Source of the DNA: Chrysomallon squamiferum
Lineage: Eukaryota; Animalia; Mollusca
Assembly: GCA_012295275.1 (NCBI GenBank)
Contig: CM022679.1
Coordinates: forward strand, 23,746,001 to 23,810,000
Reading direction: 5' to 3'
DNA length: 64,000 nucleotides
In this document: piece by piece, positions 1,617 through 39,427 of the stretch
How positions within the stretch are numbered: the first letter of the stretch is position 1
Layout of the letters: every line of letters starts with the position of its first letter
Position numbers and translations under genes: made by a program
Notes under the pieces: generated by a model
What the model saw: the letters and a program-made list of their open reading frames with translations, nothing else
Database searches by the model: none
Told to the model about the DNA's origin: nothing

Positions 1617-1658
<42 letters not shown>

Positions 1659-1923: not shown

Positions 1924-1973
<50 letters not shown>

Positions 1974-3884: not shown

Positions 3885-3915
<31 letters not shown>

Positions 3916-13842: not shown

Positions 13843-16304
13843 TTAATAGCCTTCAGCAATCAGGTTTCTGATTGTTGTTTTCAGAGGATTGTAATTCTTA
13901 GCATTTCCTGCAGAAAGTTTGCCTGATTCAAATATCTGCCATCCTAAGCTGGAGCGAGACAGAGAACACATGATGACAGCTTGGCTGTTTCTGGCATGTG
14001 TGAAAGTTGTACTGCAGAGATCTTTATTCTTATTTGAAGCTTCGTAGAATTTTAGACTGGGGTTAGGATATCTTGCAATTGTTGGTGAATTCCAAGCACT
14101 GAGTGTGAAAAACAAATGTGTAACATTGGCAGGCAATTTCTTCAAGTATACGTGAATAGTGTGATGACCAATTCTTTGAATATCATTCATGACATCACCT
14201 GAATGAGTGACTGCTTTCATAATGAAATAATGTGTCTGGCTGTAATCAACAGTATAGAGGTAGTTTTGCCCATTAAAAAGAAGACAAGATGCATCTAAAT
14301 AATCACGCCTGCCGTGCATTGGGTAACCCCAGAAGAGATCAAAACCACATGGTCAAAAGCATCAGGAATGGCATACAATAAAACCACCAGATGAATTGTT
14401 TCATTAGGCTTTACACTGTAATCACTCAGTGTCATAATATGTCCACCATCTCCAAATACCTGAAATTAAATCATAATAATTATACCTTTGTTGGTCAACA
14501 TAAATTCTTTATATTTTGAAGTTATTATTTTTGGACGATGTATCATTGCTAATAACAAAGTTTGGCTATTAAATAATACTACTATTTATCCTATCAATGT
14601 GAAGTCATGATATCACATGCATGGTGAACTTGTAGGTATGTTTCTTCTGGTTTGGTGAAAAAAAACTTGCTTGAAGTAAATACAAAATCTCTAGGTTATT
14701 TATATATGTAATAATTATTTGATTTTAATATTTTGTTTTGAAACTGCACTTGTTTTAGGATATTCAAAAAAAAAAAAATACAAATGTTTATTCACAAATG
14801 TATATAAGAGAGTGTCCTTTTTAAAAAAAAAATTTAAATAAAAGAACCAAAGTACATTTACAGAGTATTATTTTGATTGTATATAATAATGGATACATGT
14901 AAACCAATATTATATTCAAATAATTCTACCTGTAGTTCTTTTTCATGATAAAGCAATTTTTGTTTTTGAACTTCATGTCCAAGTTTGGTCTTGATTTGTT
15001 CCTTCAGCTGTAATATTGTCATAGCTGGATTGAAGATAATGTTTGCACTGTCCCCAGTTAAGACTGAAACTCTTATAATATCATGAGCTGCTGAATCAGT
15101 GATACAGGGTGGTGTATACTCTGTTGTGTATTCAGTGAACATCTCTGCCAATGTTGCCTGAATGAGCTTTACTACATCACTGTTAAATGGTACAGGTTGA
15201 CCACATGAAGGATGTGGACATATTCCATTTTCTTCTGAGCTTGCTATCACACACTGAAAGAAAATGATAGTAGTAACTACCAATCTAATCTAAGCACATG
15301 GGTTTATATTTTTGTGTGTGGAAAAATTAGAGTTAAAAACTTCAACACTGATAAAAATGATTCCTTAATTAACATGTAATTCAAATAGCCATTTTATCTG
15401 CATATTTGTTTTATATTTACTTTAAATTTACCTGTCTCCAAATTGATGTCTCTTTTAAAATTCAAAGAATATTTATGATCATAAAGCAAGTTTTAACAGC
15501 CAGTAATTTTTTGTTTTATCCAGCCAATGTCTTAAACTGTTTCAAAGAGACATGCAGATTAGTTTGCAAATAATAGATGTTAATTCAAATCTTCTAAGTT
15601 CAGGTAATAATTATTTTAAAACACCAATTGCATAAACACTTCAATGAGATGTGTTTTTTCTCCATTTTTCATTGATGTATCCATAATAATTGAAAAATAT
15701 GAAATAAAAATAAAGAATGACTAGTGTACTATTAAAAACAACTTGCTGCACTGATCTCAAGATAAAAACACAAATTATACAAAAACCAGTTGCTTCCTTT
15801 TCAAGAACAAATGGATTTTTGATATAGTAATTAGCTTTGTATAAAGACAACAAGTTTTTCCTTTTGAATAATGGTGGCCATATCACCTGACTGTTAAAAC
15901 TTTCACCTGCATAAATACACATATTGCTTTGGCAATATATAACACATATCTGTAATGGCAAACCATTTTACAGAGTACATATTATGTAAGTGTGCATTAT
16001 TTGTGCCTCAGTTATGGATAAATTATAATTCAGCAGACAAAAAGTAGTCTGTGTTTCCAGCTTGATTCACTAATATATGTCACTGATGCACTGTAACTGA
16101 TATCAGATAAACACTTATCTGCTTCCATATAAGTATGGTTAAAATCATTTATATTGTAGTTTATAATTTCTGTCTGTATAACAATAAAATAAACAGAAAG
16201 CTTACCCTCATGCAGTAGAGCTGAGGATGTCTGCATTCCTTGGTGAGATCATCAGGATAAAATTCACGTCTTAGTTTATCTTGATTGCATTTTCTGCACC
16301 TCAT
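13843..16304 (-). CDS. RING finger + ubiquitin-like + TerD-domain fusion protein (~346 aa; one 1-nt frameshift)
   Basis: Exons 16304-16206 (ATG; MRCRKC...ECRHPQLYCMR), 15253-14930 (CVIA...CPHPSC...IIRVSVLTGD...TILQLKEQIKTKLGHEVQKQKLLY..ELQ), 14459-13843 (..TLSDYSVKPNETIHLVV..FDLFWGYP..DYLDASC..VTHSGD..HTIHVYLKKLPANVTHLFFTLS..AVIMCSLSR...WQI..EGY*). All junctions are phase 0 with GT-AG. One T is missing from a T run at 14341-14344. Confidence 0.85.
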
Positions 16305-16400
16305 TCTCAAGTCTTAATGTTTACTGCACTAATAAGAACATTATTTCTTTATAAGACCTCACTTATTATTAAAAATTACAAAAAGAAATCACTATAATGT

Positions 16401-17060
16401 ACAGGGTGGTGCAATAGTCTCTTACCATTTTAAAAAATAAATATAAATGATTTTGCTTCTTTCTTTCAGTGATATTTAATACAGGTTTGTGAGATTTACA
16501 CAACTGAGCTAAGACTGTTCGATGTTGGTTTGAAAACAACCATTCCATTTTGCTTAATCAAGACTCTTGTGAAAGTCTCTTGGTTTTAATTCTTGCATCA
16601 GCTCAATCTTATACAGGAAGAAATATAAATCCTTTGTTGTATACTGCAGTGACCTATGATAAATGCCTAAATGCATGGAATGTCTTAGAGTTGGTGTTCC
16701 TGGTTCTTTTGCAAGACTTTCACATAAATGTTCAGTAACGTGGTAGTCAATACCATGGCAAATAGTAAAGAAACTGTTCTCTTGAAAACACTGAATGGTA
16801 CTTCTGAGGGATGATCTTGAGGGACTACTTCTGACAGATATTAAATTGGCAGAAGTATGTTTTTATGTAAGCAAATGGAATGGTTGCTTTCGAAACAAAA
16901 TTGAAAAATCTTTGCTCATTTGTGTAAATCTCTATGATAATCTAACAAATGATTATTAAAAATGAAAGAAGAAAAAAAAAACAGATTCAAATTTTTTTTT
17001 AAATGTTAATAACAGTAATAATATTTGTTAAAATGGTAATTAAATGACTATTACATTTTT
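16401..17060. mobile_element. Degenerate Tc1/mariner-type element with long inverted arms
   Basis: Begins ta|cagggtggtgcaatagtc..ttaccatttt. The 16400-16560 arm is mirrored at 16865-17060: gagatttacacaactgagc vs gctcatttgtgtaaatctc; aaacaaccattccattttgctta vs taagcaaatggaatggttgcttt; aaaatggtaa..gactattaca. Confidence 0.65.
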
Positions 17061-17279
17061 ATATTTCTGTGAAAAGAACTTCATTATGAATACAGTACCA
17101 CAAATGCTGTGGAAGGAGAAGTTAAATAAAAATAAGTTTATTGTATTGGTCATATGGATATATGTATTTGCATAAATCAATAGAATCAAAACAACAAAAT
17201 GTAGAAAAAAAAGTTTCAGTAAAAGTTACAAGGACCAGAAATGCGGGTTAAGCAAAATGTACAAACCTTTCAAATAGTA

Positions 17280-18681
17280 TACAAATATTCAGTAAAAAAA
17301 AAATCGAAATTACATTTAGTTTCATTTTAGTTTCTAGTCCCTATCAATTTCTAAGAATTACTTTCAGTTTTAATTCTTCGTAAATAAGTGAACGCCTTTC
17401 GAGTGTACCACTATTGTTTAGGTGTTCAGTGGTATAAATTAATCATGGCAACTGTTACCGTATAGAAATATGTCATAGTTTTTGATTGCGACAGTCAATA
17501 CTGTCTAATGAATATTAGTGTGCCCAGTGTGTATAATTATAGATTTATTTTATTTCATTTAAACACTGATTAAAACAATGTTTCCCCTAACTTTATGATG
17601 GACTAACCCAGTAAATTATAAAGCTCATACAAGTTTGTTCGCTGGGCTAGGTTACTAATTGGTTTCATGCGTTGCGTAAGTATTTTAAACATATTACTAT
17701 AGTTAAGGTAATTATTTAAAAATAAATAAATTAATAATAATAATAATAATTTTTATCCAAAAAACACTGAAATAAAGAAGTTGTATTTTCATAATACTAC
17801 TGATATTGTTTGTTATCGCCCATGCTATTTCAACACAGTTAAGTGAATAAAGTGAGACTGACGGAAAATCTAATTTACACTGTTGAAGAAAGCTGACAAC
17901 AAATATACTAGGTCTAACTTTTTCAAACAGCTATTTATATTTATTGATATTCTGTCTGTACCAATATTTTTAATTGATTTCGTTTTGTCCCGATTCATTT
18001 TAATTTTTGGCAATCACTTCGACAGGTGTGTCTATATCATTATGTCACGAGGCCTGAATATTTCGCAGAATAATACTTATGAAATGTTTTCGTCGTCAAC
18101 TGCATCCATTTGTCATTACATATATATTTTCCAAACTGACTGACGCATTATTTATCGATTTATTGATAAGCTGCAAGGCCTAGATCATACATGATACAGA
18201 TGTAAACTGCAGGTTTACCAAATTTTTTATTATTAGTAACTCACCATAAAGCGATTTTAACAACAAAAGGATACAAATATTGTTTTTACTTACGAACAAA
18301 ACTTGCAAATTTACTCGAATATAAATAACAGATCACAAAAGTGCACCTACTTTCATTTTAGTTTCTGTTCCGATCAGTTTCTAAGAACTACTTCCATTAT
18401 AATTTCTTGGTAAACTGAGTCTACGCCTCTTATTGTTGTTTATCAGTACTGTTCAGTAAATAATGTCTTCTCTGACATTATAATGGATTAAATACGAAAG
18501 TTACAAAAATCACACAAGTCAGTTCGCTGGTTTAGCTGACTATACTGAAAAACTACTGAGATAAAGGTGCTATGTTTTATACGTACAAGTCCGTTTGCTG
18601 CTAAGATCACTGTTTTTTTGCATTGCGTAAGTAATTTTAAAAGGACATTATTTTAGTTGACGTAATTATTAAAAAACAAAA

Positions 18682-18713
<32 letters not shown>

Positions 18714-20230
18714 AAAAAATAAAATAAATAAATAAAATATGTAATTGAGATAAAGGTGTTAAACTTTCTTATTACTGTTGAAATAAGTTGATCCCGGTCA
18801 GGCTGTTTTAACATATATGTCTGACGCAAGATTGATGTAAATCAGATTTCAGGAAGTCACTGTACATTTTACACCGGTAACCTCAACATAATTTTAATAA
18901 AACTCAATAATCTTATAATTTAAATAAAACGGAATTGAGAGATAATCCATGCTATTTATGAGAATGGGAATTGTATCAGATTTTTTTTAATAGATAAGTA
19001 AATGACATTCAAGATTCACTGAAAATGTAATCCTGAAATTTCTTAATTATTATTTTTTCAAATTAATAATTTATTTATTTATTATCCTTGATTATTAGTC
19101 AATATATATATATGTGTATATACCTACAATGATAAGGTAGATAGATTAGCTGAGGCAATAAATATATAATATTTTGAACTAATTAACTAAATTTATTGAT
19201 AATCTGTTCATATCAGATTTATTAATTCCTTTTGATGAAAGTGCTTAGGCAGGTAGTTACTGGTTTCTGTGAATATATTGTTGATGACTAGACACTTTTA
19301 TACCAATTCATTTTACTATAAGTTCTCAAGTATTTTGCCTGGCAAACACCACAAAGTCTGCTTAATTCACAGAATAATACATTCTTCAGCAGATGCAGTA
19401 TGTCTTAAGCATATATTTTCCAAACTGACTGACTGACATATTATTTATTGATTTATTGATGATTTGCAAGGTTTAGAAATAAACAGCAGTTTTACCAAAT
19501 TTTTATCACCATACGGCTATTTTAATACCAAAAAGATAAAATATTAATTTTCTTATGAAATTTTATTTTATTTAAATTTTTTTTAAAACACACAAATATG
19601 AATTTTTGAAAATAACAGATTGCAAAACTACACCTACTTTCATTCTAGTTTCTGTTCTGATCAGTTTCTAAGAACTACTTTCCATTTTAATTTCTTGATA
19701 AAATGAATCAGTGACTTTTGACCGTTCTATTGTTTGTGTATTCAAGGCTGTAAATTAATCAGACCACTGTGAACACAGAGCCACTTTTTATGATCTATAA
19801 AGGCTGTATTGGCCCTATAAATATTACATATGTTAATATGAACAATTAAAGATTTATTTTATTTTACTTAAATACTAATTAAAATAATGCCTCCCCTAAC
19901 TTTATAATAGACAAACCAAATAGACTAAAAACTTTAACACCAGTCTATTCCCTGGTTTAGGCTGCTAATTTGTTTAAAGTGCTGTGTAAATATTTTAAAT
20001 ATTTATATAACTTAGTGTAATTATATGCATAAAAAAAAAAAATAATAATAAAAAAAAATAATAATTCTGGTTTGTTATTATCAAAGAACAATAATATTAA
20101 AAAAAAAATAAGAAGAAGAAGAAGAAAGAAAAAATATTTTTTTTTAAAGATCAAGAAAATCATTGAATAATACTACTGAAATAGATTCATCTCACACTGG
20201 AGATTTCCCCACAAGCAAGATTGATATGTA
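17280..20230. repeat. Degenerate tandem triplication (~1.0-1.3 kb unit) between the divergent genes
   Basis: Block ttcatt(t/c)tagtttct...atca.tttctaagaa.tactt at ~17321, ~18351 and ~19639. ttttccaaactgactgac at ~18127 and ~19416. ttgcgtaagta at ~17672 and ~18623. cccctaactttat at ~17584 and ~19893. Confidence 0.85.
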
Positions 20231-20241
20231 AATTTGATTTA

Positions 20242-20283
<42 letters not shown>

Positions 20284-21089
20284 TGATTTATTGTATATGT
20301 TAACAATGATAATAAATATATTAGACTTTCAAATAATAATTTATACTTGTTGAAATTATGTTTGCATTAATATTAATTCAATTCGATGACAGTGCCCAAG
20401 CAGGTAATTATTGTTTTGGGTTCTGAGAAGATACCATTGATGACATACAATTATATATCACTTTATGAAAGAAAAATAACAGTTCAGGAATATTCTGAAT
20501 CAGTTCCTCTGACTAAAAACACTATTAATATGGGCACATCACAGCTGGATCAAAGTTATATATTATGCAGTTTTTTCAAATGAAAATCATTTATTAAAAT
20601 TGTAATGATTTAAAAAAAAAAAAAAGATAAAAAAAGAAGTTGTTTTTATTGCCTTGACAAACTTTTATTGAATTCCAAAAAAGGTCATTTGCATTAAATA
20701 ATTTTTTTTATTCTTTATTTATTTATTTACTTATTTATTATTATTATTATTTTTATTGTTATTATTATTATTATTTTGTCTGTGTTTATTGATAAAATAA
20801 AGCAGCTTCCCTTTCAAAGTTAATTAAAAACATTTAACAATGAAAAGAAATACAGCATCAAATTATATTGTAAATATTTAGAACTTGTACAGTAATAATT
20901 ATGCACGTGTAATTTTGTTCAGATTTGTATTTATTTTTTGACTGCATGGAAAATGTATAATACATAGCCAGATCTTTATTTGTTTATTATTATTTTTGTT
21001 ATTATTTTATTTATTAAATTTTTTTTACAGATGAAATTCATATAACAATCCAGATCAAACAATGACTTAATTTAGGATTATTATTCACA

Positions 21090-24000
21090 ATGGCTGAAGC
21101 AAGTAGTGGACAGGCATTTGGTAAGTTATGATATACAGTGGAAAAAATAATAATGATTTCACTCACAAAATCATAATCATTTTGGATCTGCTAATATTCA
21201 TTTATCATAAGATTTAGAGACTGAAAGTCCAGGTAATAAGTGAGAATGTGTAAATATTTGGTAAAGCTGGCTTTTTTTCATTTTCCAACATTAATAATCA
21301 GAAACAATAATTTAATACATATCACACATTTGTTCCTGGTGTGTGTATGAGTATATATATATATATATATAATCTTCAAGCTTTTATTAAATTTTTCTAT
21401 TATTTTTAGACTAATTTTATTTACAAATACATTTTTGTCTTTAGTTAACAGTTTGTACTGTATAATAGTCATCTAATTCAACATTAATAAAAAATGAGAT
21501 TTTATTGTTTTTTCTAATTACTGGACATTTTTTCAGAGTTTGAGATCAGTCTTGATCCATGTATTGTACATGAAGATGGCGATGAAGAAAATATAGAAGA
21601 TTATAAAGTGGTTTATGAATTAGTGAAGGAATTTCAATTTCTTAAAAATTGCTTTAGAAGTTTCAACTTCGTCAACATTGTCAGAGTTTCTCCTGATTTG
21701 AAAATTACTCTATCTGTATTGTCTTTAAAACATTTTACTGAACTTCTTAAAGAAATTAAGAATGGGAATCTGTCAAAAACAATTACAGATGTTGCAGTTA
21801 GTCAAGGAATTGAAGTAACTATTGGTGTATTTTCTCACACTAAACAGACATCTCATTTGCAACTGGCTGTATCTTTATGTGACGAAAAAAGAACAGAGAG
21901 AAAGGCCAAATCTCATTTTAAACCATCAAGGTAAGTAAGCTTAAGAACAAATAAAAATTTAACTGATTCAATTGTAAAAAAAATAAAAGAGCACAAGTTT
22001 ATGTAGATGAATGTATGTGACTAATAATTTTTTTTTTTTGTATATCTCATACATAAATATTTCAATTAAGTTATTAGTTTCCACATGAGTAGAAAAAATT
22101 GTCATATATCTGTAATTTGAATGTTTCAATTACTGATAAAAAAAAGAGTCCACTCAATGCAAAAAAAAGAAAAGAAAATCTGGTTACAAGAGGAAAAAAA
22201 GTACAGTATGCCAAAAAACAGATTAAGACCATTTACTGGTTGAGAAAAGAAAACTAACAAACTACAACTAAATAAAAAAAGCTAGTTTAGAATAAAGTGC
22301 TGTATTGCTCATTCAACAGTTTTCTTATTCAAAGTCTAATATTTTTTTTATACTGATTAACAGAATGGCTTATATAGATGTAACCATTGTTTTATATTTT
22401 ATTTGAAAATAAATTTAACCACTACCTTTGCAATTTATATGATTGTTGTTGTTTTTGTTTTTTTCTATTTATTTATTTACTATCATTATTATCATTTTTA
22501 TTTGTATCATATTATTATTATTATTATTATTATTATTTTGTTTCTGTTTGTTAAAGTGATTCTATATAATTTTTTGATAAATTTAAAAAAAATGTTTTTA
22601 TATAATTGTACTGCTGAAATTCTGTTCAAGATTTTGTATGCATAAGAAATACAGAGAATTCTGGACATATTTTTATTGCACTAGCATGTTATGAACTACT
22701 TCCAACTAGAAAACTGTAATTTCTAATCCTAAGACCATTTTAATATTAGAACAAAAAAATAATAATTATGCATAATGTATTATTTTTGGTGAAAGCTTCA
22801 GTATGTTGTTTCTACATCTTCTTGTCTTCTGCTGTCCGCTGCCAGTTTGTTCCTGTCCATTGTCTCACATATCTTCCTTTATGTTACTACCTGTTATATG
22901 TCCATCAACTGCCTTGTTTTCCTACTGATGTACCTTGCCAGTCTGTGATCTTTGTTTTCTCTCTTAACTGGATGTTTGTGTTTTGGTCTGACTTTGTTTA
23001 TGTGGCTGCTTATCTCTTCTTTGCCTCATTATTTAATGCCCATGCATCACTGCTAGAAATACACATTGTAAACTTGTCACTTCAACGATTTCCTTGAATA
23101 TGTCCTGATACTTTGCAAAAGCAGTCCAGCTAGCCTTGTTCTTTTCATTAAATTAATATTGTTTAAATTATTTTCTTCTGATTGGTAAAAAAAATTAAAA
23201 TAAAATAAAATGAATGAATGAATGAATGAATAAGTAAGTAAGTAAACAAATAAGTAAATAAATGACAAAATAAAATTAATATTTTCAATAAAATGATGCA
23301 TATTAAATTCATTAATATTTTGATATTAATATTCATCATTACTATTTTCAGCCGATATTATAATTAAAATGTATAGCTTATGAATTAGCTAATGTTGTAT
23401 ATTGTATTTCTAATTGCAAAAATATATGGATTTCACTGACATCATGACATCTTTCTAGGCCTGAAACAAAGGAAACAGCAGAATTGTCAAAAGCCAAAGA
23501 CAAAACTAGGACACAGTGCACAGCAGAATTTGTAAGTGGTATTTTTATTATTTCTTAGACAAGTACTATTATTCTGTGAGACCGCATAAAAATATTATTA
23601 TTCAGCTGCCAAAAATAAATAAACAGGAATTTAAATGGCTCATTTTTGATTTTGTTGTACTGAAACATTTCAAATAGTATCTTACTGTACTGAAGAAATA
23701 AATTGAAGATTTTTATCAACAAAGTTTGATCTCTAATTAAGTAGAAATGAACTGATAAAGAATGAAAATGTTTCACTTAAAAATAACAGTAATATTCTTA
23801 TATTTAGTTAAGGCATTTGTATTTTGGTAAACATTAAATGATAGTAATACATTTTCTTTGTTTTTTTGTTTTTCTATCAGGGTACACAATGTTTGAAGTC
23901 ATCTGAAGAAAAAACACATTCTGCTTCAACAGCAGTTATTTGTAAGCAGTTTCGTGAAGGAACAGAAGTAGATAAAAAGAATCATGACCAAGGCAATTTA

Positions 24001-27000
24001 CAAAGTGAAAGAAAAACTGATGACAAAGAGATTCAGGTATGTATTAAGTTTTATTCTGCTTGATGTGATATAAGACATAGGGAAATAATTTTCAGTGACA
24101 AGGACAGGCCACAAGTAGAACAGATTATATGATTATGATAGTATCAGTGAACATTAGGAACATATTTTCTTATTTTGTATTAAATAATCAGAGGATACAT
24201 TTAAATTTGTTTTTATTGTAAAGCTAGTTTAACTACAAATATCTCTGTTAACATAGCCAAAAAAAAGAAAGTCTATAAAAAAAATAATAACATAATAAAA
24301 TAAATGACTGAATTACCTAAATAAATTGGAAGATATGTACAAATACTATTAAAATGAATTTTTAATTTTAATTTCAATTTTTTATTTCAGTTAGTTGCCC
24401 GATATCTTTAGATAACAGTTACTAAAAATAATTAACATGATGAATGTTATGCAAAACTGGTAAAGGTTCATTATTTATAAATGATTTAACATTAACAATT
24501 GTATGAATTCTTGAAAATATGTATTAAATTTCAATCATTGTTTTGATAATACATTTTATAACCTCAACATATTTTCTTGTTTTCAGTCTTTAAGTTTTCA
24601 GATAGTTCTGCATATCCCTGTTGACAAATCTTTGCTGAATTCATATGTATATATTGAATTAAGAACTGAAAAAATCTACATAGGTTGGAAACACTTGTAT
24701 AACATTTGTGAAGAAATATGGATGAGCTCTATATTGTCTGTTCCTCCTGATACAGAAACATTGGAATATCGATGTGAATTTGACATAACCACTGGAAGAA
24801 TTTTCAAAACAGTTAAAAAATATATGGATTATAAATGGAAACAGGTAAAAATTAAACCAGTGATTCGAGACTTCTTTGTTCCTTTAGAAACAGACACAGT
24901 TGAAAAGGGAATTAGTCATCATCTTAAGCATCTGTTAACAACCTTTAACAGCAACTTTTTAAAAGATACAATAATGGATATTGATGATGTTATTATGTGT
25001 GCAAATAAATATAAGACATACAAAGCAATAAATTATAAAACAGTTGTTTTGCATACTGAAAGATACATTCTAGAAAATCAACTTGAAATACAGGAAACAT
25101 ACATTATTTTGGGTTATATCTGTGGTCTGCTGCTTGGTGGTCATGAAACAACGAAAATTTTATCAAAACAAACATGTCTAGAAATACTTAAAACTTTGAA
25201 GACACTTCCATGCACAGCTCTACCTGTAGGTTCACTGAAATATTTTGAAAATATTGCCGAAGACCTGTGCTCTAAAGCATTTCCTGATCAGCCAAGTATA
25301 GTGCAACTGTTTGAATTTTGTTATCCTGCAGTTACATCTTCTTATATGATACAAAAATGTAACAAATCCAAAAAACCTCAATTTGTGTGCAGTATGGAAA
25401 CATGTGAATCTATCTGCCATAAAATTATCAGTCAGAGAGAATCAGGAGATAAAGATGCAATGTTGCTCCTACACACCTTTTTAAAACACTCACCCATTGA
25501 TTGCAGTATTTATGCAGCACAAAACTTGGATTTGTTAAATCAGACTGAATTTGTTAACTGTTTCAGATCACGATTTGAAGATGAATGTAATGTGTATGCC
25601 AGAACTAAGAATTTTGCAGCCTTGCACAAGCTTGTTTGTGATTTATCTTCAACACATGAAGATATTGTATTGATACTCTCAGAAATATTAACAAAAACAA
25701 TGATTAGCATGGTAAAGTCATTGAATAAATCTGACACTGCTGAGTATCCTGAAATAGAGAAGTTAATGGATTGTCACATTCTTTTCAAATCAAACAAATC
25801 TTTTGACAGACTTTGTGCAGTCATGGCTGAATCAGATAACAAGTTTATACATATTTTTTTTTTGAAAATGCTTGATTCAGAACAAATGACTGATGTAAGC
25901 AGTACTTCCCTGTTCAATTATGTAAAGACATGGTTTGAGACAGCAGTCAACCATCACTGCAGTGAGAAACGATATAAAGATGTATGTGATGACCTCCCAC
26001 TGGTCTATAAGCATCTAAATAACCTGCTGAAAACAACATCAGTTTCAAGGCAGGAAATACTTATAAATGAATTGAAAGAAAAAACATTTCTATTTCTTAA
26101 AAAAATTCCACTAAATAAATTAATGCAGGGAGTTTGTGATTCAGAGATTCTTGACAATATTGAGTTAACAGATCTATTTAGTGAACATTTAATTAGGAAG
26201 TTATCAAGCTCAGATGGAAAGGAGTGTATTCTCTCCACCATTGGAACATTTTCAAAACAAAAAGCTTTTGACGCCTCAAGGTATGCTTAATATTTACTTT
26301 TTAAAAATATTTTGCAGTTATTCCACTTTTAATCTGAATAATTTTATCCTTGGTCTACATGTCTTTTAGCAACATAGATAAAAATATTTTACTTCATCAT
26401 TATTTTCAAAGATTTTATATATATTGAAAGAAAATCAAAATTGTAATAAAAAACAACAGAATTTACAAAATAACAGTTCCTATGAATTTTACTTCTGTTA
26501 CATATAAATGTTTTTATTTGCCATTGATGACCTTTTTCATTAACTAAGAATTTGGTAAAAATAATTCAATAAATTTATATTTTTATTTGAACTATCACGA
26601 AATAACTGCATACTGAAGTAAAATAAAATTTATAAATAAAATACATTTCAATGCTTTTATTATTTATTTGATCAGCACATCACGTATAATGAATATATGT
26701 GACACCAGTTTTATATGCCCAGGCACTGATAATGCAACATTCTTGGTTTCACTGAAATCAATTGGTTTCAAAGTTTTTCAAAATTCATTTTGTTAGTTAT
26801 TGAAGACATTTGGAACTGAAAGGGCAAATATGAATTTTCATCACTGAGGTGATGATTATTATTATTCAATAAATTTAATATTGACAAATGTCAGTGAGAC
26901 TGTCTGGTATCACAGATAACATAAGACTGAATTGCTGGCCTGATATCCATCAGGCTTGCTTGTTGCTGTTAACATTTTGTGATTCCACTTGGCTGCTTCA

Positions 27001-30000
27001 AACGGTTAGGTATTTCCTGAAACACTAGGTATAGCTGGTTATACTAGAAAATGTTGCAACACAATCTCAGTGGTCATTTGTGAAGAATAATACTGTCAAT
27101 TTACATGGCTTATTTATTCATAAATGCCACACAAAAATATAAACCAATTAAATATCTTTAGCAAAAGGCTAGATGTAAAATGTGAATTTACATTAATTAT
27201 TTGAAAATGAAAACAAATAAGATAAAAAATATTACAAATGTAGACAAATGTACAAAAAATGCTCATTTTATTCAAGTTAGGAAAATATTATACATACACT
27301 GCTTTTTTCTTATTTTCCCAGATCTTTGACTAAATTGCTGATTGTTGCCATTGAGGTTTCTGGATTGACTGATGCAAGTTCAGATTTGGATAGATTGAAA
27401 CTTATGCTAAAAAATGTGGATTTTTGGATAAAATTAATGAATGTGCACGGAATACATTCTTATCAAGTAAAGAAACACACAGGTTTTGTCACAGCGCAGA
27501 AATGTCTTGTTTCTATTTCAGAGCAGTTAATCTCCCAGAGGCTGAAATGCAATGAAGTAGAACAATTGAAAGCATTTGAAAATGAAAATGGCAAATGTAT
27601 TGTTCACCTATTGAATGTATGTCCAGCCTACCAGGGAAAAGATATCGATAAAGCATGGAATCTGGTAACAGAAAAAATAGTGAACTTTAGAAAACTTCTT
27701 GATGTTTCTTTTGCAATTTTGCAGAAACTAAAGAGAGGTATTGAAAAAGATTTTCTTCCAAATATTCCACGTTTCAATAACGCAGTGGTATATTTTGAAA
27801 AGAAAAAAGAACATTTTGTAAATGGTGGTGTCTGCTTGTATGAACTAGATGATGGTTCTTTTGTTTCACCTTTAATATATACACTTTTCAGTCTGCAAAT
27901 GAGTCAAATGTTAGATTCTGAAGTCTTTTTGACTCTCAGTGGACACATTGTTGAAACAGTAATAAACAATCCTATTGAGGATTTGGAATCAGAATGCATA
28001 GAAGAATCTATTTCCCAAATGTTTGGTGAAGAAGATCCTGAGATAATAAAGTTACCAGCTGTAGTTCTTTCCATTCTGAAAAAGTTGGAAGATGAAGGTA
28101 TTGATAAGTATAAAGCTGCATGGAATCCTGTGTTCATGGAAGAAGCTGAAGATATTTCTGAAATTAAAATCATTGTTGAAGTATCTGATCTGGAATCTGA
28201 GATTCATTTGCTGAAAAAATCGTAAAGAAAAGTTTCCATATTGGATTTTTGATTCACTTTTGATGATTAGAGAGTACAAGAGATATGAAGAGAAAGTTCA
28301 TGCAGTCAAACAAAGTTTTGGGAATTGTTGGAATTAAAGATGAATTGGATGATGGCTTTTCTCAAGCAGTGAAATCATTTTATGCTCTGAAAAACAGTAA
28401 TCCTGAAGGAATTACATTGAAACAACTGCATGCAGCAAAATGTCAGTTTTCTCTGATTGATGAAATCATTGATGATGACTTTTTGGATATTTTGAAACAA
28501 CTGAGTAAAGCATCATCTTTGGTTGAGTTTCTTTTTGAAACTGCAGAAGATGATTTACGCCAGTTAATAGATTCAGTGGAAGAACATTCAGAACAATTTA
28601 TACAAGAGTCCACAATTTCTGCACTCATAGATGTCAAAAGATTTTTGAATTCTATTTTGAAGAACAAGATGCAGTTCGATAAAATAGAAGTATTTTTAAA
28701 GACTTTGGAAAAGGCTGCTTCTGCAAATGACAAGACAACTCTAGCAGGCAAAATAAATATTCATGGGTTGAAATCACTTTACAAATCTGTATCCAATCGA
28801 GGTGAACTGACCAAAGACATTGTAACCAAAGCAGTCAAATCAGGATCAAAATTTATTATTTCACTGAAAGAAAATGGTTGCTGTGAATTTTCTTTACAAT
28901 GCAAATCTCATGGTCAGAAAGAGGTGTACTCCCAGTCTGATCTTGATGATTTGCGAAGTCGAGCACTTTTACTTGTCAACACAGAAACTAAAAGAAAACA
29001 AGGAGGAAAACACAAAGCAAAACTTCAGGCAGACTTGAAATTGTTTATAGATGCCTTGGACAGTGTCATCTGCATAGCAGGATGCTTTGTAAAACTTGCT
29101 CAGGCTGGTCATCCTGATTATGTCTCCAAAAGCAAAAGCATTCACATTACAATAGAAGATTTGAAAGACAAAATAAAATGTCTTGAACAACATTTTGAGG
29201 AGTGGATGGAGATACTGAATGAAAATCGTGAACATTATTTTTGGTTGAACTGGTTTTTTCCTGAGCAACTTTTAAAAATTAGAGACTATTTGGAAAATGG
29301 TACCAATGACACCTACATTGCAACACTTTTTGAATATGGAGGCTTTAATGTAGAATTTCTTAGCAAAGGAAGAGACATCTTTAATGAAATAACTGACAAT
29401 GAAAACAGTCATTCATTTTCACTGCCTTTGGTTGGACAAACACTTGATATTGCATTAAAAAATACATTGTTTCAGCCAAAGCATTTTCCTAAAGAAAAGA
29501 ATGACTCAAAAACTACACATATGATACAGAAAGGTCAACTTTTTGTTGCTGCCATAGATGAAAACAGCAAGCTGGTTATTCCAACTATTTTGGCAATATA
29601 TAAAAACACAACAGGATTCCTTCCCATGCCACATCAAATTCTGTTTTGTAATTCAGATACAAAATGGGAATGTATTTTTCTTCTTTTACAAAGATGCATC
29701 CGATCAGATGGTCCTGTCTTTGGAAAACAGCTGTATTGCATTGTTGGTGTTGAAAAACTATCAAATGAAGTACAGTTTAAGCTTGTTGATGAATTAGATG
29801 AAATGCTGCAAAAACCATTTCCATATCTAGCTATAATCTGTCAAGGTGGCACACATCACCCATTTATTGATCACTTTGATACATATGTGCATCATATTCA
29901 ACCAATGACAAATAATGCCATTGAAAAATGTTTCAGAACGTTATGGCCTATGGTTGTAACAATTACATCAGATGTTTCAGGTCAAGGTAAAACAGAACTT

Positions 30001-33000
30001 GTTTATGATATGGCAGCTGAGCATGACAAGGGGATACGTACTATTCATATTAGTGGAGATATCAATATTAAATCTTTGAAAGAAAGAATGTCTCAACTAA
30101 ATCTGTTACCTCATCATGTTCTCCATATTGATATAGGGACGGTTTCAAAACCTAATGAATTGGATCTGCTTTTGTTTCAGCTAATAATTTTGGGATTTCT
30201 TGTTGATGGACCATCCCTTTTTCAGTTACCAACTCAATACATATCAATTGAGGTAGCTAATTCAATTAACAATGTCCTTCGAAATTCATTGCAAACAGTT
30301 ATGTTTTTCAACCGTAAAATTACGCAATCTTCCTGAATGCTGGCTATGCTTTTCGCTACAAGGTGACAAATTGAAAATAACAATGTAAAATCAGCATTGA
30401 TTTTCAGCATCAAATCTTCTGGCTATGCACAAAGAAAATAACAATGTAAAATCAGCATTGATGCGTGCACTTATTGACTTTTCAACAGAATTTTCTACAA
30501 GATCTGTTCAAGCCTACAGAGAAGAACAAACTGCTAATGTTTCACAGATATTGGATGCAAGTATGTGCAGTGAATCTTCATTTTCAGTTTCTACATCAGC
30601 AGTATCAATGACCAAAAGAGTTGAAAATATGATTCAATGGAGAGAAAGTAATCATCTTATCGTGGCATTTCATAATTCAGATATACAGACATTATCTGCT
30701 CTTTACAGAGAGAGATTTCTTGTGCCAAAACACATCAAAGATCTTTTTGAAACACAAGTCAAGAAAAAATTGCCTGATTTTCAAAGTCTTGATCAAAAAC
30801 AGCTACAAGAAATACTCCAGAGAATTGCTCGATCTGCAGCTGGGGATATTCCAAAAGAAACTCTACTTAAACTTTGACATGATTATGCCCTAACACCAGA
30901 CAATCTTTTGAAAATGATTCTTATCATTCTCAGAATAAAAGCTCATGTTCCTGTTATTATCATGGGTGAAACTGGTTGTGGAAAAACTAGTTTGATTCGC
31001 TATCTTGCAGTAATCTGTGATGTGAAGCTGGAAGTGCAAAACATACATGCAGGTACAGATGAATCAACTATTACCAAAAGGGTTATGGATGCAAATGAAA
31101 AAGCTAAAGCAAACTTACATGAGCCAGTATGGGTGTTCCTTGATGAGATAAATACTTGTAATCATTTAGGATTGATCAACAACATAGTTTGCCATCATAT
31201 TTGTCAAGATACGGCACTGGCACCAAATCTTGTACTTATGGCTGCATGCAATCCATATAAACTGCGAAATGAAGCTTCTGTTCTGACTGCTGGTTTAACA
31301 ACAAAAATAAAAACTGATGAACAGTCTAAGCTCGTATACAGAGTAAACCCACTTCCAGAAACAATGGTTGATTTTGTTTGGGACTATGGAAGCTTGTCTG
31401 ATGAAGATGAAAAGGTCTATATCCAGAGAATGGTAGATGGTATTGTGCAAGACCATTTAGTTAAGTTGTTGGTGGAACTGCTTGTAATGTCACAAAATTT
31501 CACGAAAAAAACAATGCAGAATGAATCCTGTGTTAGTCTTCGAGATGTTAGTCGATGCAAGAGGCTAATTGTTTGGTTCAAATCTACACTGAAAACTAAA
31601 TATCCAAGAACTTACCAATAACCAGTGTGAAATAAAATCAGTAATTTTATCCCTAGCTCATTCTTACCATTCTCGTTTGGCTAAAAATACAGAAAGATGT
31701 CAATACAGAAAGGATATGTTGAACCTATTCATGAGTCATAAAATAACAGGATTTACCTCAGAAAAGGACATTCTTGATGCCATCCTCTTAGAGCAAAAGG
31801 ACATATTGAACAGAATGGAACTTCCAGAAGGAACAGCAAGAAATATTGCATTACAAGAGAATGTTTTTGTCATATTGGTATGTATTTTGAATCATATTCC
31901 AATATTTGTTATTGGCAAACCAGGTTGTAGCAAATCACTGTCACTGCAGTTGATCAAAAATAATTTGAGAGGTAAAGATTCACATGATGAATATTTCAAA
32001 ACTCTTCCTCAGCTCTACTGTATATCATATCAGGGTTCAGAGTCATCAACATCAGATGGTCTTGTTAAGGTCTTTGATAAAGCCAAACGATACAGAAAGC
32101 ACAATAAAGAAGATGATGTCCTGCCAGTTGTCGTTCTTGATGAAATTGGTCTTGCAGAGGTTTCAAGGTTCAATCCTCTTAAAGTTTTGCACAGTTTACT
32201 TGAGCCAGGTGATAAAGAAGTACCAGATATTGCTGTTGTTGGTATTTCTAACTGGGCTCTTGATGCAGCAAAAATGAATCGAGCTATTCATCTGTCTAGG
32301 CCAGACATGGATGTTGATGAGCTTTACTTAACTGGAGTGTCAATCAGTGAGGCATCCATAAAAGCAGAGCATAAAATTTCGACTTCATTATTTAGTCCAG
32401 AAAAAGTACTTCAAGATAATTTTCAAAATATAGACCATAATCTTTTAAAAGCCATTGCAGAATCATACAAGTCTTATATATATAAACAAAGCTATCAAAA
32501 CTTTCATGGATTGCGTGATTATTATTCTTTGGTTAAGTTTGTTTCAAAGGAGTTGAGCCAGCTATCAGAAATAGACGGATATCCAGAAAGAAAAAATGAA
32601 ATCATTTTGAAAGGTCTGTTGCGCAATTTTGGTGGTCTACCTACAGAGCTGAGTTCCATTGTCAGGACTTTTAACGAACATTTTTTAAGTGCAAACATAA
32701 ACTTTAATGACTCTTTCTCAGAAAACCAGGCTTTGAATGTAATCTCATTGATCAAAGAAAACATTTGTGATCCAGGTGCAAGACATTTGTTGCTTACTGT
32801 CTGTGGTGATTCAGTTCTGAGTATAATTGAATCAATGCTGCAGAATATGAACAGAGAATATGAACTGATCATGGGCAGTCAATTTGAAGAAGATCTTACT
32901 GACGATTACAATTATAGAATTCTTAGCAGAATAATACTGTGTATGGAACAAGGTGTTGTTCTGATTTTGAAAGATCTCGACAGCATATATGGAAGCCTGT

Positions 33001-36000
33001 ATGACATGCTGAATCAAAATTACACTACTGTTGGAAAAAGAAAGAATTGCAGAATAGCACATGGTGCCTGCAGTAACCCACTGTGTCATGTTCATGATCA
33101 ATTCCGATGCATAGTTCTGGTAGAGGAAGGTAAACTGGATATGTCTGACCCACCATTTCTGAATCGATTTGAAAAACAGAATGTTAGACTTTCAGATATT
33201 CTGACTTGTGAAGAGAAACAGTTAGTCATGGAAATAGATTCTTGGCTCGAAAAGGCTACTCAAGTGGAAGATTTTCCTTTTACCAAAGTTGACTTTATAC
33301 CTATTTTCAGCCCTGACATGATATCTAGCTTGGTGCATTTTACAATGACTGTTAGTTTGGAAGGAAAGGCAGTCAGTCAGAAAGATTTATCTCTTGAGTG
33401 TAATGAAAATTCACTTAATAAATGTAAAGATACGTTGTTGCAGATGTGTTCTCCTGAAGGCATTATAAGGTTACAAAAAACCTTTCTTGGCAAAGAAAAT
33501 GAATGGGCCTGTCAAAAACTGACAGATAAATATTTTGCACTACCCTTACATGAGGGGCTAAGCTACTGTGTAAAAGACATGATTCAGAATAATTCTCATG
33601 TCAACCACAAATTGATTGTATTTACTCACAGTAATCTACACACAGATCTAGGCAGCTGCATGAAACCTCTTTCATCCAAATACCAGATTGAGAAACTTAG
33701 TTCTTTTAAATCAGAAAAACAGCTTTCAAACAGAATTGGTCACTTCTGGTTGGACTCTGATGATGAATGGTTAATTATTCAGTGTTCACATGTAGATATG
33801 GTAAATTTCTTATTGATGAAATCAATAGTTGAAAAATTCAGAAATGAATTTGAGAACACAAACAGTGAATGCAAGAAAAATGTCATTATAGTCTTACATT
33901 TAGAAAGAGAACTTGGAGATATGAATCTGGGCTTAATCAGTTTCCTATGTGGCTGGAAACTTTGTTTTGTAGACAAGCTTGAGCATTCACCAAGACCATT
34001 AACCAGTTTACTTGACAAGACCATGGAAAATTTGCTTGATGAACAAAGGCCATTGACATCATTCATATCTGAAAATCTTTTTTGGGCATTCACTTGTATT
34101 GGATACTCAAATGGTCAGCGAACAATGGACAGTTTGGTAAAAATAATTAATAAAATAAAATCTGAAGAAATTTTGTTTGCCTTTGAAAAACTGATGATGG
34201 GTTTTGTCCAAGAAAAACAGCAATCAGTTTTGATGAAACAAAATTGGCAACTAGATGTTGCATGCAGTGCTCTAAAATTGTTTAATGCTTGTACTTTTCA
34301 AAGTGCTCTTGAACAAGAAATTCACAGTTGCTTAAAACCATCGTTAGCTGCCCTTGTTTACCAAATTGAATTCTACAATGCATGGGATGTTTTGACTGTT
34401 GCAGCTGAAAAACATGATAGGCTGCAAGTATGGAACATATTTGCATTTGACAGACATGTTGTTAACATTGCTGATGTCCCAGCTCCTGCTGGACCTCAGT
34501 GTTATCTTTGTCCATTACTGATAGATTCATTACAGTATCCATTTATCTGTCACTTTTTTGAAAAAATTGCAAATTTAAAAAATTTGTTCTTGGAGAAGCT
34601 AAGATCATACAAAGCAGAATTAAAATTACTATATGATGATGATGAAGAAGATGAAGACGATGACCATCTTGGCAATATTGATTTTGATGATGAAGACCAA
34701 ATTGCAAAAGTCAAAACTGAAATGTGCAACAGATTCAAAGGAATTATCAGTGTAACTGCAAATGAACTTTTTCAGAATGAGTATACAACTTCACAGGAAG
34801 ATTATTTCTCAGATTTTTGCAGGTACATTGGTGCATCAAGGAAAATGCATATATCAGATGACAACAAACATCAAATAATAATGATGACAATGAAGCCTCT
34901 CCTCTCATCAGAAAATGGATTTCTTGAAACTGTTACAGAGATACAGGTTACATTCTGGTTATATGAATCCTATGTTATTTCTTCACTGAATTTAGTGGAT
35001 GCATGCCTTTGTGTTACAGACATTTCGTTTGAAAACATCATCAAAGAATGTTTTCCACCTAAAATTGCAGAAACTGATGTTGATGATTATCATGCCAATT
35101 CATTTCCTGACTATGTCAGTGACATCTCTGATTTTGAAGAAAAAGCAGAACTTGATTCTGATAACGTTTCAGTTGAACAGAAAATAGCTGCAGGTGAAAG
35201 TCATTCAAACAATGAACATGACATTGGTAATGGTGATGATGGTGGAAATTCTGTAAATAGCTGTGATGTAGAAGTCTCAGTTGGTAAAGAAAATGTTTCA
35301 GAAAACAGATTGGTGAATTATTGTTGCAAACAGATGATACCATCAAAACATATGGCTAACATTAAAGTTGATGAGTGGCACCAGGGTGTTAGTCTAGTTT
35401 TATCTCTTTCAAGTGAAGTATCTTTGGAGCCCAAATATCTGCAGTATCTCAGAGTCTGTAGTGACTTTGCATCATTGATTGTTATTCCATTAAATTTACC
35501 AAATCACTACCTTTTAGAACTTGGGGATACTATGATGGGAAAAGATCTGGTATCAAATGAATTTCTTAGTTATTTGTTCTCATTGCTCATTGATCTAAGA
35601 ACCAAAAAGCAAAATTCTGAAAAAGAACTCCAACATTTCCTATCATGTTATATAAGCTCTTGCCTTTCTGCTGATCCAGATTCTCAGATTTTATTCTGGG
35701 CTTTCAGGGAATTGAAGGATAATATGCTCGATGAAACCTTCAGCTTTTTTGGTCCAACTGTTCATCAGGCTTTATTCATGGAAGTTAGAAATGGTTTAGA
35801 CATTTTGAAAGATGACCAATTAGAAGACAATGAATTTGTTCATTTTCTGAATGATTTATTAGCTGAATTTGATGAATCACAGAATGGATCTTCATGTTTT
35901 GGAGCTCTTATATCAGATATTTTAATTGATTTTTTCTTGAAAAGTGCAACTCTTTTTGAAGGAGATTTGGCAAATGACACTGCAGTTATTAAAGAAATGC

Positions 36001-39000
36001 TGAAATGTCACAACACTTTTCTGGATGAAGATGAACAAAATTTAAAATTTTTGGTTGCTATAGCATTTCTTAAGAATGTAATGTCAAGTTTTTCAAATGT
36101 TCTAATAAGAAATGACTTTATCCCAGAACACTTCTCATCTGAAATCCAGCAGATCCTTTCTATATTTCATTTGGATGAAACTGATGAATTTCAATCAACT
36201 AGAAATGAAAAGATTAAAACCATGCAAATGATGTTGTTACGTTTTCTTGTGAAAGGAGATGGATTAAAAGGGTTTGATGTTATTAAACAGTCAGTAACTA
36301 CAAAGATTGAATTCCTACAAGAAATAGAAGTTGATACAGAACAGAGGTTACTATCATATGAACAAAATCCCTGTGGATTACATGCTGAAGAAGAAAAGAA
36401 TGCATTTTTCTCTGTGAAAACTAAACCTGAATTGATGAATTCTTTGATAAAATCTGCAACTAAAAATGCCAAGCTGATGATGAGGATATATTCTTTTGTA
36501 ATTCAGCAGTTGTATTTAGTCCAAGCTTTTCGTCCCATTACTGACACAGAAAGATCTTTATCAGAGTCTTTTATAAACTGTGCTAAAGAAAGTTCTATGT
36601 TACCCATGCAGATTAATCTTCTTGAAAGACTATGTTTGAGAAAAGATTTTCTACATCCTCTTTTACAAATCAGTTCATTAACAGACAGCCAGAGTTTCAG
36701 CATGGTGTCTGTTCTAGTTCATCTGTTCAGTATTATTATTGCAAATGTACAAGAAGAAAAAACTAATTCTAAAAGATCATTATTCAGCAGTTGTCTGCTA
36801 AAACTAAATCAAGTTGATTCCAAACATCTTTTTGCATTCTATGATTCAGAAGGAAAAATGAATGGTGTTGTTTCACACATTGGTAACTGTGTAAAAATTT
36901 TCAACTGCTCTTGTGGATTTATAACAGCATCATGTGCCAGTGAGGAATTAGACAAATGTTTGGTTTGTAAGACAGACAGTACGAAAAATGAAATACATTT
37001 TACTGCAGGGCAACGGTATTCAAACTTAGAAAATGATTTTAAGAATCATCTAATATCAGTGAGAAAACTTTCACCTCTTTCTTTCCAGATTTTAAATTTT
37101 CTACTGTATGGATGTGTCATTGGTTCATTTGCACTGGAAATCACTCCTCCAAAAGATCTGACTGATCTGTTAAAATTATCTGACAGTGCTGACATTGTTA
37201 GTCATCTAAATGAACATTTAGAAATACATTGGGAAGCTCTAAAGACACTAACATCATTTGGAAATGCTCAACTCTGCAAATTCTTGCATTTCATACTAGA
37301 AGACCAGCAAGAGTTATTTTTGAACGGTTTGTCACAATTTTGGAATGACAAAGAAAGAGAAGAATTTGAAAATACATTTGATCAATATGTAGTAAGTCTA
37401 GCCACAAGCAGGTTTGAAATAATCCAGAGAAAGATCATCTTCCATTCCAAAACAGTTAATGGTAATTTTGTTGTTAAATTTGAGAAAGCACTGGAGGACA
37501 TTTGTGATGATAAAAATTCAAAAATTCTTGCAAGGCTGTTTAGAACAACAGTTCCTCCAAGTTTCAACCATATGCAGGCAGAATTTTTAAATAGCAAGAT
37601 GAGATTGATGTACCCATTCCTAGCATTAGTCTTTGAAAAGAAGCTTCAGCTTGATTTACTCTCTCATTTACTGTCATGTGTTCAGTGGCACTTATGCACA
37701 GTAAAATATATCAGTCATAGAATAAAACGGGCTAACAGTGTTAAAACAACATTAGCAACATTTATTTATAATTCTATGATAGATGAAGATGAAGATAACA
37801 AAAAGGTACTGAAAAAAGCTTATGAAGATTTTACAAAATCCTGGAACCGATTAAGAGAATACCTCCCAATTCTTCAAAAATACAATCCTGACATTGTCCA
37901 AATGGAAAGGATAAACAAAGAAAGCAGTCTTTCTGAAACACTTGTAATGGATGACACATCACCAATGTATTTGGTGATGAAAGCTCTTCAAAACATGCAT
38001 AATGAGTTTCTTGAAGAAGCTGTTGTAATCACATTAAGCACTAGATGCTATTCCACTAATTTTCTGAAGAGAAGTAAGACTTGTTCAGTTCTTGCAAGTG
38101 TCAACCTGGAGGACATAAGTGAAAAGGAAATGATTTCTAATCCTTTTGATGAAGATTTGTTAAAGTTTTCTCAGTGTAATCCAAACCCTGGTTGTGGACT
38201 TCAAAGAGAATATGACTTCTATCAGATTGAAATGCAAGTTGCAGATAAATGTCTGATAAATAAGCCATACATAAAGATCCAGACAAACTTTCCTCAAGTG
38301 ATCTTTTCTGGTGAAATGCTTCGAATGTCAAAAACTTTATTTAATGAATTACGTAACACTGTTCATCAAAAACCTCTTGACAAGGAATTAGAAAAATTAG
38401 TTATTCACCTGAAGGAAACCAATCCCAGCAATTTGCAAGGGCTTTTGAATTATTTGGAGATGGCTTTCAGTTTACTAACAAGAAATCCTTTACAAAGACA
38501 TGATGTTGATCAGAATTTAACTGAACTGCTTCAGCAGTGGCAGTCACTGATATCAGTACAAATTCCTGCTGTCTCAGTATTTTGTTCCAAGGTGCCCCTG
38601 TGTTGCATTATTGCATTATATGAATTTGTTGAAGTTTTGATGGCAGATGTCATCATTGATTCATTAGAAGAAAAGTACACCAAGCCAATTCCAGAGGAAT
38701 GTGTTGATAATCTTGTTGCTGTCAAAAATTCTGCATCTATTCAGCTGATAGAAACATTTTTATATGCTCTGAAAAGATTTGCTTTCAGATACTTGTCTGC
38801 ATCCAGTATAGATCCCAGTGATAAGTTGTCACCTTATCTTATGGATGCAACCCTGTGGCCTACAGGTGTAGTTCAAAAGGTTTCTGCTGGTTCATCAAAA
38901 GCTGACACAGGAATACTCTCACCACTTTTAGCAGTAGAACATACTATGTCAACTATCTTGTTCTTTGAAGATGCCTTGAAGGTTAGTAAATACCATGGAT

Positions 39001-39427
39001 GACATTTAATGTTGATTTTTCATACAGTTTCTTTCATTTTTTTATTTTTTTTTAATCTTAATTTCAAGACAACTTGTCACCACATTTAATTTTGCTAGCC
39101 AGAGAAACTACCTTTAAAAACTGAATCTGTTTAAATTTAATTATTATAATTTGTATTTCTCATAATACATCTATATCTGTGAGTATTGTTTTGAGTAGAT
39201 TGTGCTTTTGGTGTGTATAATGTGTAAATGTTTTATTTTAACAAATATATATAAAGTGTGAAACTTCAGTTAATATAATTGAAATTAATATTATTATTTA
39301 TATTTTTTCATCATTACAGGAAAAGAAAAGAAAGATCGATAAAGCAAGTGGTAGGCTCTCACTGCACACTGAAAACCAAGGCAAAAACAAGAAACACAAA
39401 GCAGCAAGACTTTTCAGAAAAAAATAA
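21090..39427 (+). CDS. RNF213: RNF213/mysterin-like giant AAA+ ATPase / E3 ubiquitin ligase (~4,700 codons; several frame disruptions at 28.2-31.6 kb)
   Basis: Phase-consistent GT-AG exons 21090-21120, 21537-21930, 23459-23531, 23881-24036, 24587-26280, 27322-38981, 39320-39427. RNF213-family motifs: LDDLRSRALL, SDVSGQGKT (29968-29994), YALTPDNLLKM, GETGCGKT (30965-30988) with VFLDEIN, LVYRVNPLP, VSLRDV, GKPGCSKS (31914-31937) with VVVLDEIGLAE, ISNWALDAAKMNR, FHGLRDYYSLVK, LYDMLNQNY, PFLNRFEKQ. It is RNF213-like; orthology versus paralogy is unresolved. Confidence 0.93.
22790..23140 (-). mobile_element. Decayed LINE (RTE-like) 3' fragment in an intron
   Basis: Minus strand reads ...caatggacaggaacaaactggcagcggacagcagaagacaagaagatgtaga (W-x3-A-E-D-K), resembling the RTE ORF C-terminal W...A.DR..W motif. 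Broken by stops. Confidence 0.45.

Follow-up and report, generated by a model that had tools for sequence, protein, structure and literature searches.

In the RZ finger of human RNF213, zinc is held by residues C4505, H4509, C4525 and C4528, with C4516 as the predicted nucleophile and H4537 as the predicted base, and a C4516S substitution abolishes pathogen ubiquitylation (PMC11549300); the way in which the protein recognizes pathogens that are unrelated to one another, and a possible need for partner receptors, are presented there as open questions. In a report on ZNFX1 (10.1101/2025.10.14.682297), a RING-like Miz domain feeds the RZ or acts alone, and the ZNFX1 of C. elegans lacks an RZ. Here we analysed a 64,000-nucleotide stretch of the Chrysomallon squamiferum genome (GCA_012295275.1, contig CM022679.1, positions 23,746,001 to 23,810,000; hereafter the window), in which a gene coding for a giant RNF213-like AAA+ protein (the giant) neighbours a gene coding for a small protein with a RING-like finger, a ubiquitin-like (Ubl) domain and a TerD domain. 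The two genes form a real, conserved, two-gene immune module of the RNF213 kind that is apparently undescribed. What is new here is the animal clade of giants, its degenerate RZ finger (pseudo-RZ), the change in gene orientation and the co-induction of the two genes. An earlier note on this DNA knew of no description of the pairing, and our literature search, with subscription papers and bioRxiv supplements outside its scope, likewise found no paper combining RNF213 with TerD, or a eukaryotic RING/Ubl/TerD protein with tellurium, and nothing about this clade.

The divergent arrangement given in the earlier note was borne out: the RING-like/Ubl/TerD gene lies on the minus strand (ATG at 16304) and the RNF213-like AAA+ giant on the plus strand (ATG at 21090), in AT-rich, intron-containing DNA (GC mostly 20-37%). 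The giant gene (21090..39427, plus strand) consists of variable N-terminal exons, one main exon of 11.7 kb and a last exon at 39321-39427; its ATG was placed by splice logic, its stop lies at 39427, and the gene is collinear with its relatives. Once read with the contigs of sequencing runs (see below), its product has about 4,800-4,900 residues. The two Walker A motifs of the RNF213-type AAA+ core are encoded at 30965-30988 and 31914-31937, with a Walker B motif after each. Upstream, 21537-21930 (plus strand) codes for an N-terminal domain that relatives from Haliotis and Gigantopelta also have and that P0117 apparently carries in repeat; it has no Pfam match, and we take it to resemble a TRADD-N-type domain. 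For the C-terminal 1,100 residues we found no solved relative and no significant match to solved RNF213, and Pfam searches of the window's RZ region and of the acidic region at 35100-35900 returned nothing at E≤10.

We gathered 221 giants, comprising the best 120 of 388 matches, the best 120 of 518 matches and the window open reading frame (ORF), and inferred a tree of the AAA region from 220 giants, canonical animal RNF213 not being among them. One clade holds 141 of these 220 sequences (FastTree support 0.999; SH-like approximate likelihood ratio test 99 in a 58-row subsample). Its named members are all animals, and its branching roughly tracks animal phylogeny; the giant of the window is nearest to that of Gigantopelta aegis, followed by Haliotis. 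A stretch of the window giant scores 238 bits against mammalian RNF213, which provides the only solved relatives, about 510-550 bits against proteins from fungi and ferns, and 660-980 bits against the animal group. Of 140 members of the clade, 136-140 retain the Walker A and B motifs. As the earlier note had stated, the giant carries no C3HC4 RING by pattern search, and Pfam likewise detects none, either in the ORFs of the window or in 17 giants of the clade, one of which is partial. That note also treated the lack of a RING as an odd trait, a view that did not survive: a RING pattern occurs in none of the 220 giants, RZ-intact ones included, so the RING-less state is typical of this lineage, and RING loss as a special trait is rejected. 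The N-terminal CBM20 domain had no Pfam match in the window exons or in the 17 clade giants, although a divergent copy is possible, and the controls P0146 and P0158 matched.

The earlier note had drawn its analogy with RNF213 through the RZ finger and made no mention of the fact that this finger is degenerate in the animal clade. In the window the degenerate finger is encoded at 36906..36968 (plus strand), with four zinc ligands kept and the G-x-C nucleophile and IGG-x-x-H motifs missing. The zinc scaffold, judged as a position-equivalent C-x-C...C-x2-C, is present in 117 of the 141 clade members (16 show no pattern and eight, mostly partial, no match), and each of the four ligands is kept in 38-43 of 44 aligned giants. 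None of these 117 fingers has the RZ catalytic motifs, whereas outside the clade the G-x-C nucleophile is found in 38 of 58 and the GG-x-x-H motif in 34 of 58. The alignment of 44 giants contains no conserved Cys or His between or just after the zinc ligands, and the Pfam RZ model (PF20173) matches none of 17 clade members and all three outgroup controls. It is likely, judging from these alignments, that the RZ finger of the giant no longer transfers ubiquitin in the animal clade. The non-animal giants P0160, P0163, P0166, P0194, P0225 and P0226, which include Paratrimastix and one Gigaspora, are also devoid of the catalytic motifs, suggesting repeated loss.

The small gene, on the minus strand, is divided into three coding exons bounded by GT-AG sites, and its product has about 346 residues. 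Exon 1 (16206..16304) contains the start codon, the region of the first six zinc ligands of the RING-like finger (C-x2-C, a K-L-x-x-E-F motif, C-x-H and the first C of C-x2-C) and a donor site; searched by itself it had no Pfam match, and its product is 64% identical to residues 1-33 of Gigantopelta P0049. Exon 2 (14930..15253) codes for the rest of the finger, a linker helix and most of the Ubl domain (PF00240, E = 3.3e-07), and exon 3 (13843..14459) for the end of the Ubl and the entire TerD domain (PF02342, E = 2.4e-06). On the protein, Pfam scores are 30.4 bits for ubiquitin (cut-off 25.4) and 27.6 bits for TerD (cut-off 25.3). A search with the TerD part identified 112 relatives among 226 candidates of 297-2000 residues, almost all of about 345 residues, in molluscs, a brachiopod, amphioxus, echinoderms, cnidarians, Glomeromycota and an amoeba; ten more cluster representatives include further members from lamprey, Salpingoeca and Planoprotostelium. 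The AlphaFold model of one family member (predicted local distance difference test, pLDDT, 91.6) superimposes on bacterial TerD (PDB 2QZ7, 2KXT, 3IBZ) with Z 18.5 and a root-mean-square deviation of 2.4 Å over 158 residues, and on ubiquitin with Z 13.9 and 1.0 Å over 73 residues. The finger, helix, Ubl and TerD cover this 345-residue model fully, and the features of RBR ligases (an IBR and a RING2 with its catalytic Cys) are absent from it. Mean identity across the family is 56% for TerD, the most conserved domain, 46% for the finger and 38% for the Ubl. The TerD domain contains an invariant H-S-G-D...G-H-H motif, standing where we take bacterial TerD to have its acidic calcium ligands. A bivalve subfamily (P0100-P0102 and P0411) has an extra N-terminal vWA domain, giving a vWA-RING-Ubl-TerD order.

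The N-terminal finger, C-x2-C-x17-C-x-H-x4-C-x2-C-x10-C-x4-C, is spread over exons 1 and 2. All eight ligands of a C3HC4 cross-brace are kept, each in 93-99 of 99 aligned sequences, and the predicted model of the finger is confident (pLDDT 94). Searching PDB sequences with the family profile yielded nine matches at E≤10, every one of them a RING domain, the best being a tandem RNF4 construct (E = 1.6e-4). In fold comparisons RING, U-box and RBR RING1 domains were nearest, with weak scores (Z up to 4.3). The most conserved residues other than the ligands form a family-specific K-L-x-x-E-F-P patch, not the surface usually bound by ubiquitin-conjugating enzymes (E2). The finger is RING-like, and its ligase role is putative.

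Linkage was judged by shared contigs and source identifiers, not by coordinates, among the matches listed, in a sampled set of 24 animal species where both genes were named. The two genes share a contig in 16 of them. Identifiers are no more than eight apart in eight species: Sinanodonta (ACJMK2_010123/4), Stylophora (LOC111339738/9), Nematostella (LOC5509269/70), Mizuhopecten (OWF52739/40), Argopecten (XP_069124640-2/643), Haliotis asinina (XP_067672823-4/826), Mya (two pairs, WAR10181/3 and WAR10214/9) and Mytilus californianus (LOC127707897/905). In three more the genes lie on a common scaffold of less than 1 Mb (Ruditapes, Actinostola and Dendronephthya, the last with another pair on a scaffold of 2.9 Mb), and in five the evidence is weak, the genes sharing only a chromosome (Mercenaria, a Branchiostoma hybrid, two Asterias and Tegillarca). 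Mya and Dendronephthya thus have two pairs each, and the pair seems to have been duplicated as a unit. The pairing is not due to chance, and the conserved linkage expected by the earlier note stands in molluscs and cnidarians and, at chromosome level only, in deuterostomes.

Its head-to-head orientation, by contrast, is not a conserved feature. In the two coral loci that we read as DNA (L040 and L005) the genes are about 3.5 kb apart and tail-to-tail, which means that adjacency is conserved and orientation is not; a conserved bidirectional promoter is rejected on the same ground. These loci come from 80 metagenome loci carrying the small gene, of which nine extend at least 3 kb downstream and two at least 4 kb upstream, the other flanks being too short to inform; the giant is found in two. 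At L005, positions 175-4843 hold an intronless small ORF and the last exon of the giant on the opposite strand, which may be convergent transcripts with overlapping 3′ ends.

Between the two genes of the window, 17307..20429 is occupied by a triplicated module, the copies of which are 70-80% identical, with palindromic STAT/gamma-activated site (GAS)-like sites at 17349, 18379 and 19666 and a fourth at 20421. Using a STAT/GAS consensus, we counted eight strand hits in the intergenic DNA compared to a shuffle mean of 0.78, a number reached in none of 200 shuffles; three of the four sites are not independent, as they lie in copies of one module. Patterns for the interferon-stimulated response element (two patterns) and for kB sites were not enriched between the genes. 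From its sequence, the triplicated module is a candidate for a shared immune enhancer.

Co-induction in an immune setting, also anticipated by the earlier note, is found in published Nematostella data for cyclic GMP-AMP (cGAMP) and c-di-AMP. In PMC8713801 (Dataset S1), the giant LOC5509270 and the small gene LOC5509269 rise in polyps given 2′3′-cGAMP with log2 fold changes of 5.42 and 6.71, respectively, and stand at rows 61 and 88 of the 6,394 of that sheet. The corresponding values are 1.91 and 2.01 with c-di-AMP (245-row sheet) and 4.26 and 4.92 in embryos (1,949-row sheet). An oyster poly(I:C) table (PMC7064767) has ten induced RNF213-like rows, the clade membership of which is not assignable, and the supplement text of PMC13319465, data tables not covered, contains none of the gene identifiers.

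Since its motor works and its RZ is disarmed, the giant must have some other output, and the gene that stays beside it codes for a RING-like finger and a ubiquitin fold. For this reason we favour, tentatively and as a proposal that falls just short of being probable, the reading that the two neighbouring genes encode one split immune ubiquitin ligase, in which the giant would be an ATP-driven scaffold and the small RING would bring the E2. Its direct support consists of the linkage, the co-induction in one species, the intact Walker motifs, the loss of the RZ catalytic motifs throughout the clade and the folds of the Ubl and TerD domains. The conservation of all eight zinc ligands in the small finger and its PDB sequence matches, all to RING domains, also speak for it, and ZNFX1 is the nearest precedent. 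According to this model, the giant, a predicted ATP-driven sensor and scaffold with an RZ likely inactive in ubiquitin transfer, would be recruited to the surface of a pathogen or damaged membrane, as RNF213 is. The small protein would dock on it and supply the RING-like E2-binding module in trans, TerD being the likely docking or ligand-binding unit, and ubiquitin would pass from the RING-bound E2 directly to the target. In RZ-intact relatives the same partner could hand ubiquitin on to the cysteine of the RZ, just as happens from Miz to RZ within ZNFX1. A broader version, which we hold a little more loosely, is that invertebrates from cnidarians to molluscs and amphioxus possess a second, overlooked defence machine of the RNF213 type, induced by cyclic dinucleotides and made of a disarmed AAA+ giant and a RING-Ubl-TerD subunit bringing the E2. 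The machine would go back to an early eukaryotic pair whose small member fed an intact RZ cysteine at first and took over transfer once animals had lost it, with the bacterial-type TerD domain serving as the sensor.

Several observations weigh against the split ligase. BLAST aligns a Cys of the window's own RZ with the nucleophile, and a His lies ten residues past the last zinc ligand; both are off by one or two residues and outside the motifs, and the closest relatives lack them. As the window copy is among the six of 117 clade fingers in which some Cys and His lie close to the catalytic positions, it is called degenerate from the clade and not from its own sequence. Two conserved cysteines in the C-terminal half of the giant, C3554 (40 of 44) and C4388 (41 of 44), could form another active site. 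The small finger is an atypical RING by its structural Z of no more than 4.3, Foldseek gave no match for it at E≤0.001, and the positions expected for the E2 contacts and linchpin of a RING are variable in its alignment. Eight of the 24 species have no shared contig among the matches listed (H. rufescens, Potamilus, two Montipora, Paramuricea, Anneissia, Gigantopelta and Mactra), both genes having paralogues; many giant paralogues have no listed partner nearby, five of them on one Sinanodonta chromosome, and a shared contig was found in none of three comparable Glomeromycota assemblies among the matches listed. Finally, in PMC8713801 the NF-kB knockdown sheet has the giant lowered and the small gene unlisted, and the cGAMP response is broad, extending over the 6,394 rows and to canonical rnf213-alpha genes, so that co-induction indicates an immune context and not a partnership.

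Other explanations have to be considered. That the locus is a decaying pseudogene pair in this animal could be supposed from the window sequence, where the giant is interrupted four times, a point absent from the earlier note, and the small gene once. The broken stretch of the giant (28207..31608, plus strand) contains frameshifts, a 200-base shortfall and a stop codon, and we checked it over 27300-39050 with contigs from four sequencing runs of three studies. Single-base differences from the window are listed near 28207 and 28315 in all four runs and near 28228 and 31606 in three; the 200-base shortfall at 30318-30408 is bridged in three, a 6-base insertion is present in all four, and the stop at 30875 is read differently in three, all among the rows listed. 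At every break three or four of the four runs restore the frame, and together they restore a single one, indicating that the frameshifts of the giant in the window are likely assembly errors. Moreover, an RNA contig from one study splices 38982 to the last exon of the giant. The small gene's single 1-base frameshift, in a T run of exon 3 at about 14341-14344, lies outside the read-checked region and is also likely an assembly error. A 1-base deletion at 35461 is carried by the run X1 contig only, absent from the other three, and could be a null allele or a contig error. In view of the frame-restoring contigs and the spliced RNA, we reject the pseudogene reading as hardly credible. Two further differences concern the same gene: a 15-base in-frame insertion at 28752 in runs X4 and X6, unlisted in X1 and X2, and strong polymorphism between haplotypes over 28030-28620.

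Rather doubtful, but the most serious of the alternatives, is that the giant acts purely as a coat protein or AAA+ motor, with the small protein as its non-ligase adaptor or substrate, gripped via the Ubl, and TerD binding a ligand or metal. Midasin pulls on Ubl domains and offers a parallel. The Walker motifs are retained though RZ catalysis is lost, the best-conserved patch of the finger is not the usual E2 surface, TerD exceeds the other domains in conservation, and some members (P0100-P0102) carry a vWA domain. This reading leaves aside that all eight zinc ligands are kept and that the nearest folds are RING and U-box E3 domains. It is also unlikely that the genes share no more than their regulation within an interferon-like cluster, acting in parallel with no physical partnership. 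The repeated GAS-like sites, the breadth of the cGAMP response, the unmatched species and the unpartnered paralogues would all suit such a cluster; however, the linkage outlasts a change in orientation, for which a shared divergent promoter provides no explanation, the pair was apparently duplicated as a unit in Mya and Dendronephthya, and a giant devoid of RZ catalysis needs another output. We consider it quite improbable that the small protein brakes or guards the giant, by ubiquitylating it for turnover or by holding it off, or that the giant is a decoy for RNF213-directed effectors whose attack the small protein reports. Tight linkage and co-induction suit a regulator pair equally, and Shigella IpaH1.4 is reported to target human RNF213, but the giant retains a full conserved ATPase core, which goes beyond the needs of a decoy.

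This lineage provides a natural experiment in which an RNF213-type giant gave up its RZ catalytic motif and kept one small neighbour for about 600 million years. It names a candidate partner in the tractable Nematostella, where LOC5509270 and LOC5509269 are near the top of the cGAMP response and annotated as uncharacterized, and it points to a role for the TerD domain in animal immunity. Of the coral, oyster, mussel and abalone genes that bear the label RNF213-like, many probably do not encode self-sufficient ligases. Elsewhere in the window, 2146-4942 (plus strand) holds exons of a hedgehog-type gene that codes for a Hint domain and, N-terminally, a Cys-rich part, the last exon matching Pfam Hint at E = 4.6e-12. 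Directly past the stop of the giant, a tandem array at 39732-42372 has about 37 copies of a 67-bp unit with 81% match, and 50873-51811 (minus strand) is a 312-codon open frame with an acidic stretch and a weak, sub-cut-off Pfam match to TEADIR3 (E = 1.8e-4).

Compared with known systems, the giant is like mammalian RNF213/mysterin (PDB 8S24, 9G08, 6TAX, 7OIK) in its size near 5,000 residues, its dynein-like AAA+ core, which shares both Walker A/B pairs, a zinc finger at the RZ position and its immune induction. It is unlike it in belonging to a separate lineage, in having no RING or CBM20 match, in the clade-wide loss of the RZ catalytic motifs and in its linked partner gene; Nematostella has canonical rnf213-alpha genes besides the giant of the animal clade. 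The closest relatives of this clade are RING-less, RZ-intact PF20173 members from Glomeromycota, mosses, ferns and protists, with a RING in none of 79. Most non-animal PF20173 relatives retain the RZ nucleophile and His motifs that the animal clade lacks, some with a CBM20 (P0146), and in the nearest sister pair, P0145/P0146, the RZ residues are spaced as in the human protein. TerD of the small protein shares its fold with bacterial TerD at only 14-17% identity and is fused here to Ubl and RING-like domains. Like HOIL-1L, Parkin and UHRF1, the small protein has a ubiquitin fold next to a RING-like finger, several RBR RING1 domains being among the weak fold matches of that finger; unlike them, it has no IBR/RING2 and carries a TerD domain instead. 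ZNFX1 joins Miz and RZ in one chain with an RNA helicase, whereas here the RING-like and RZ modules would be divided between two genes and accompany an AAA+ core.

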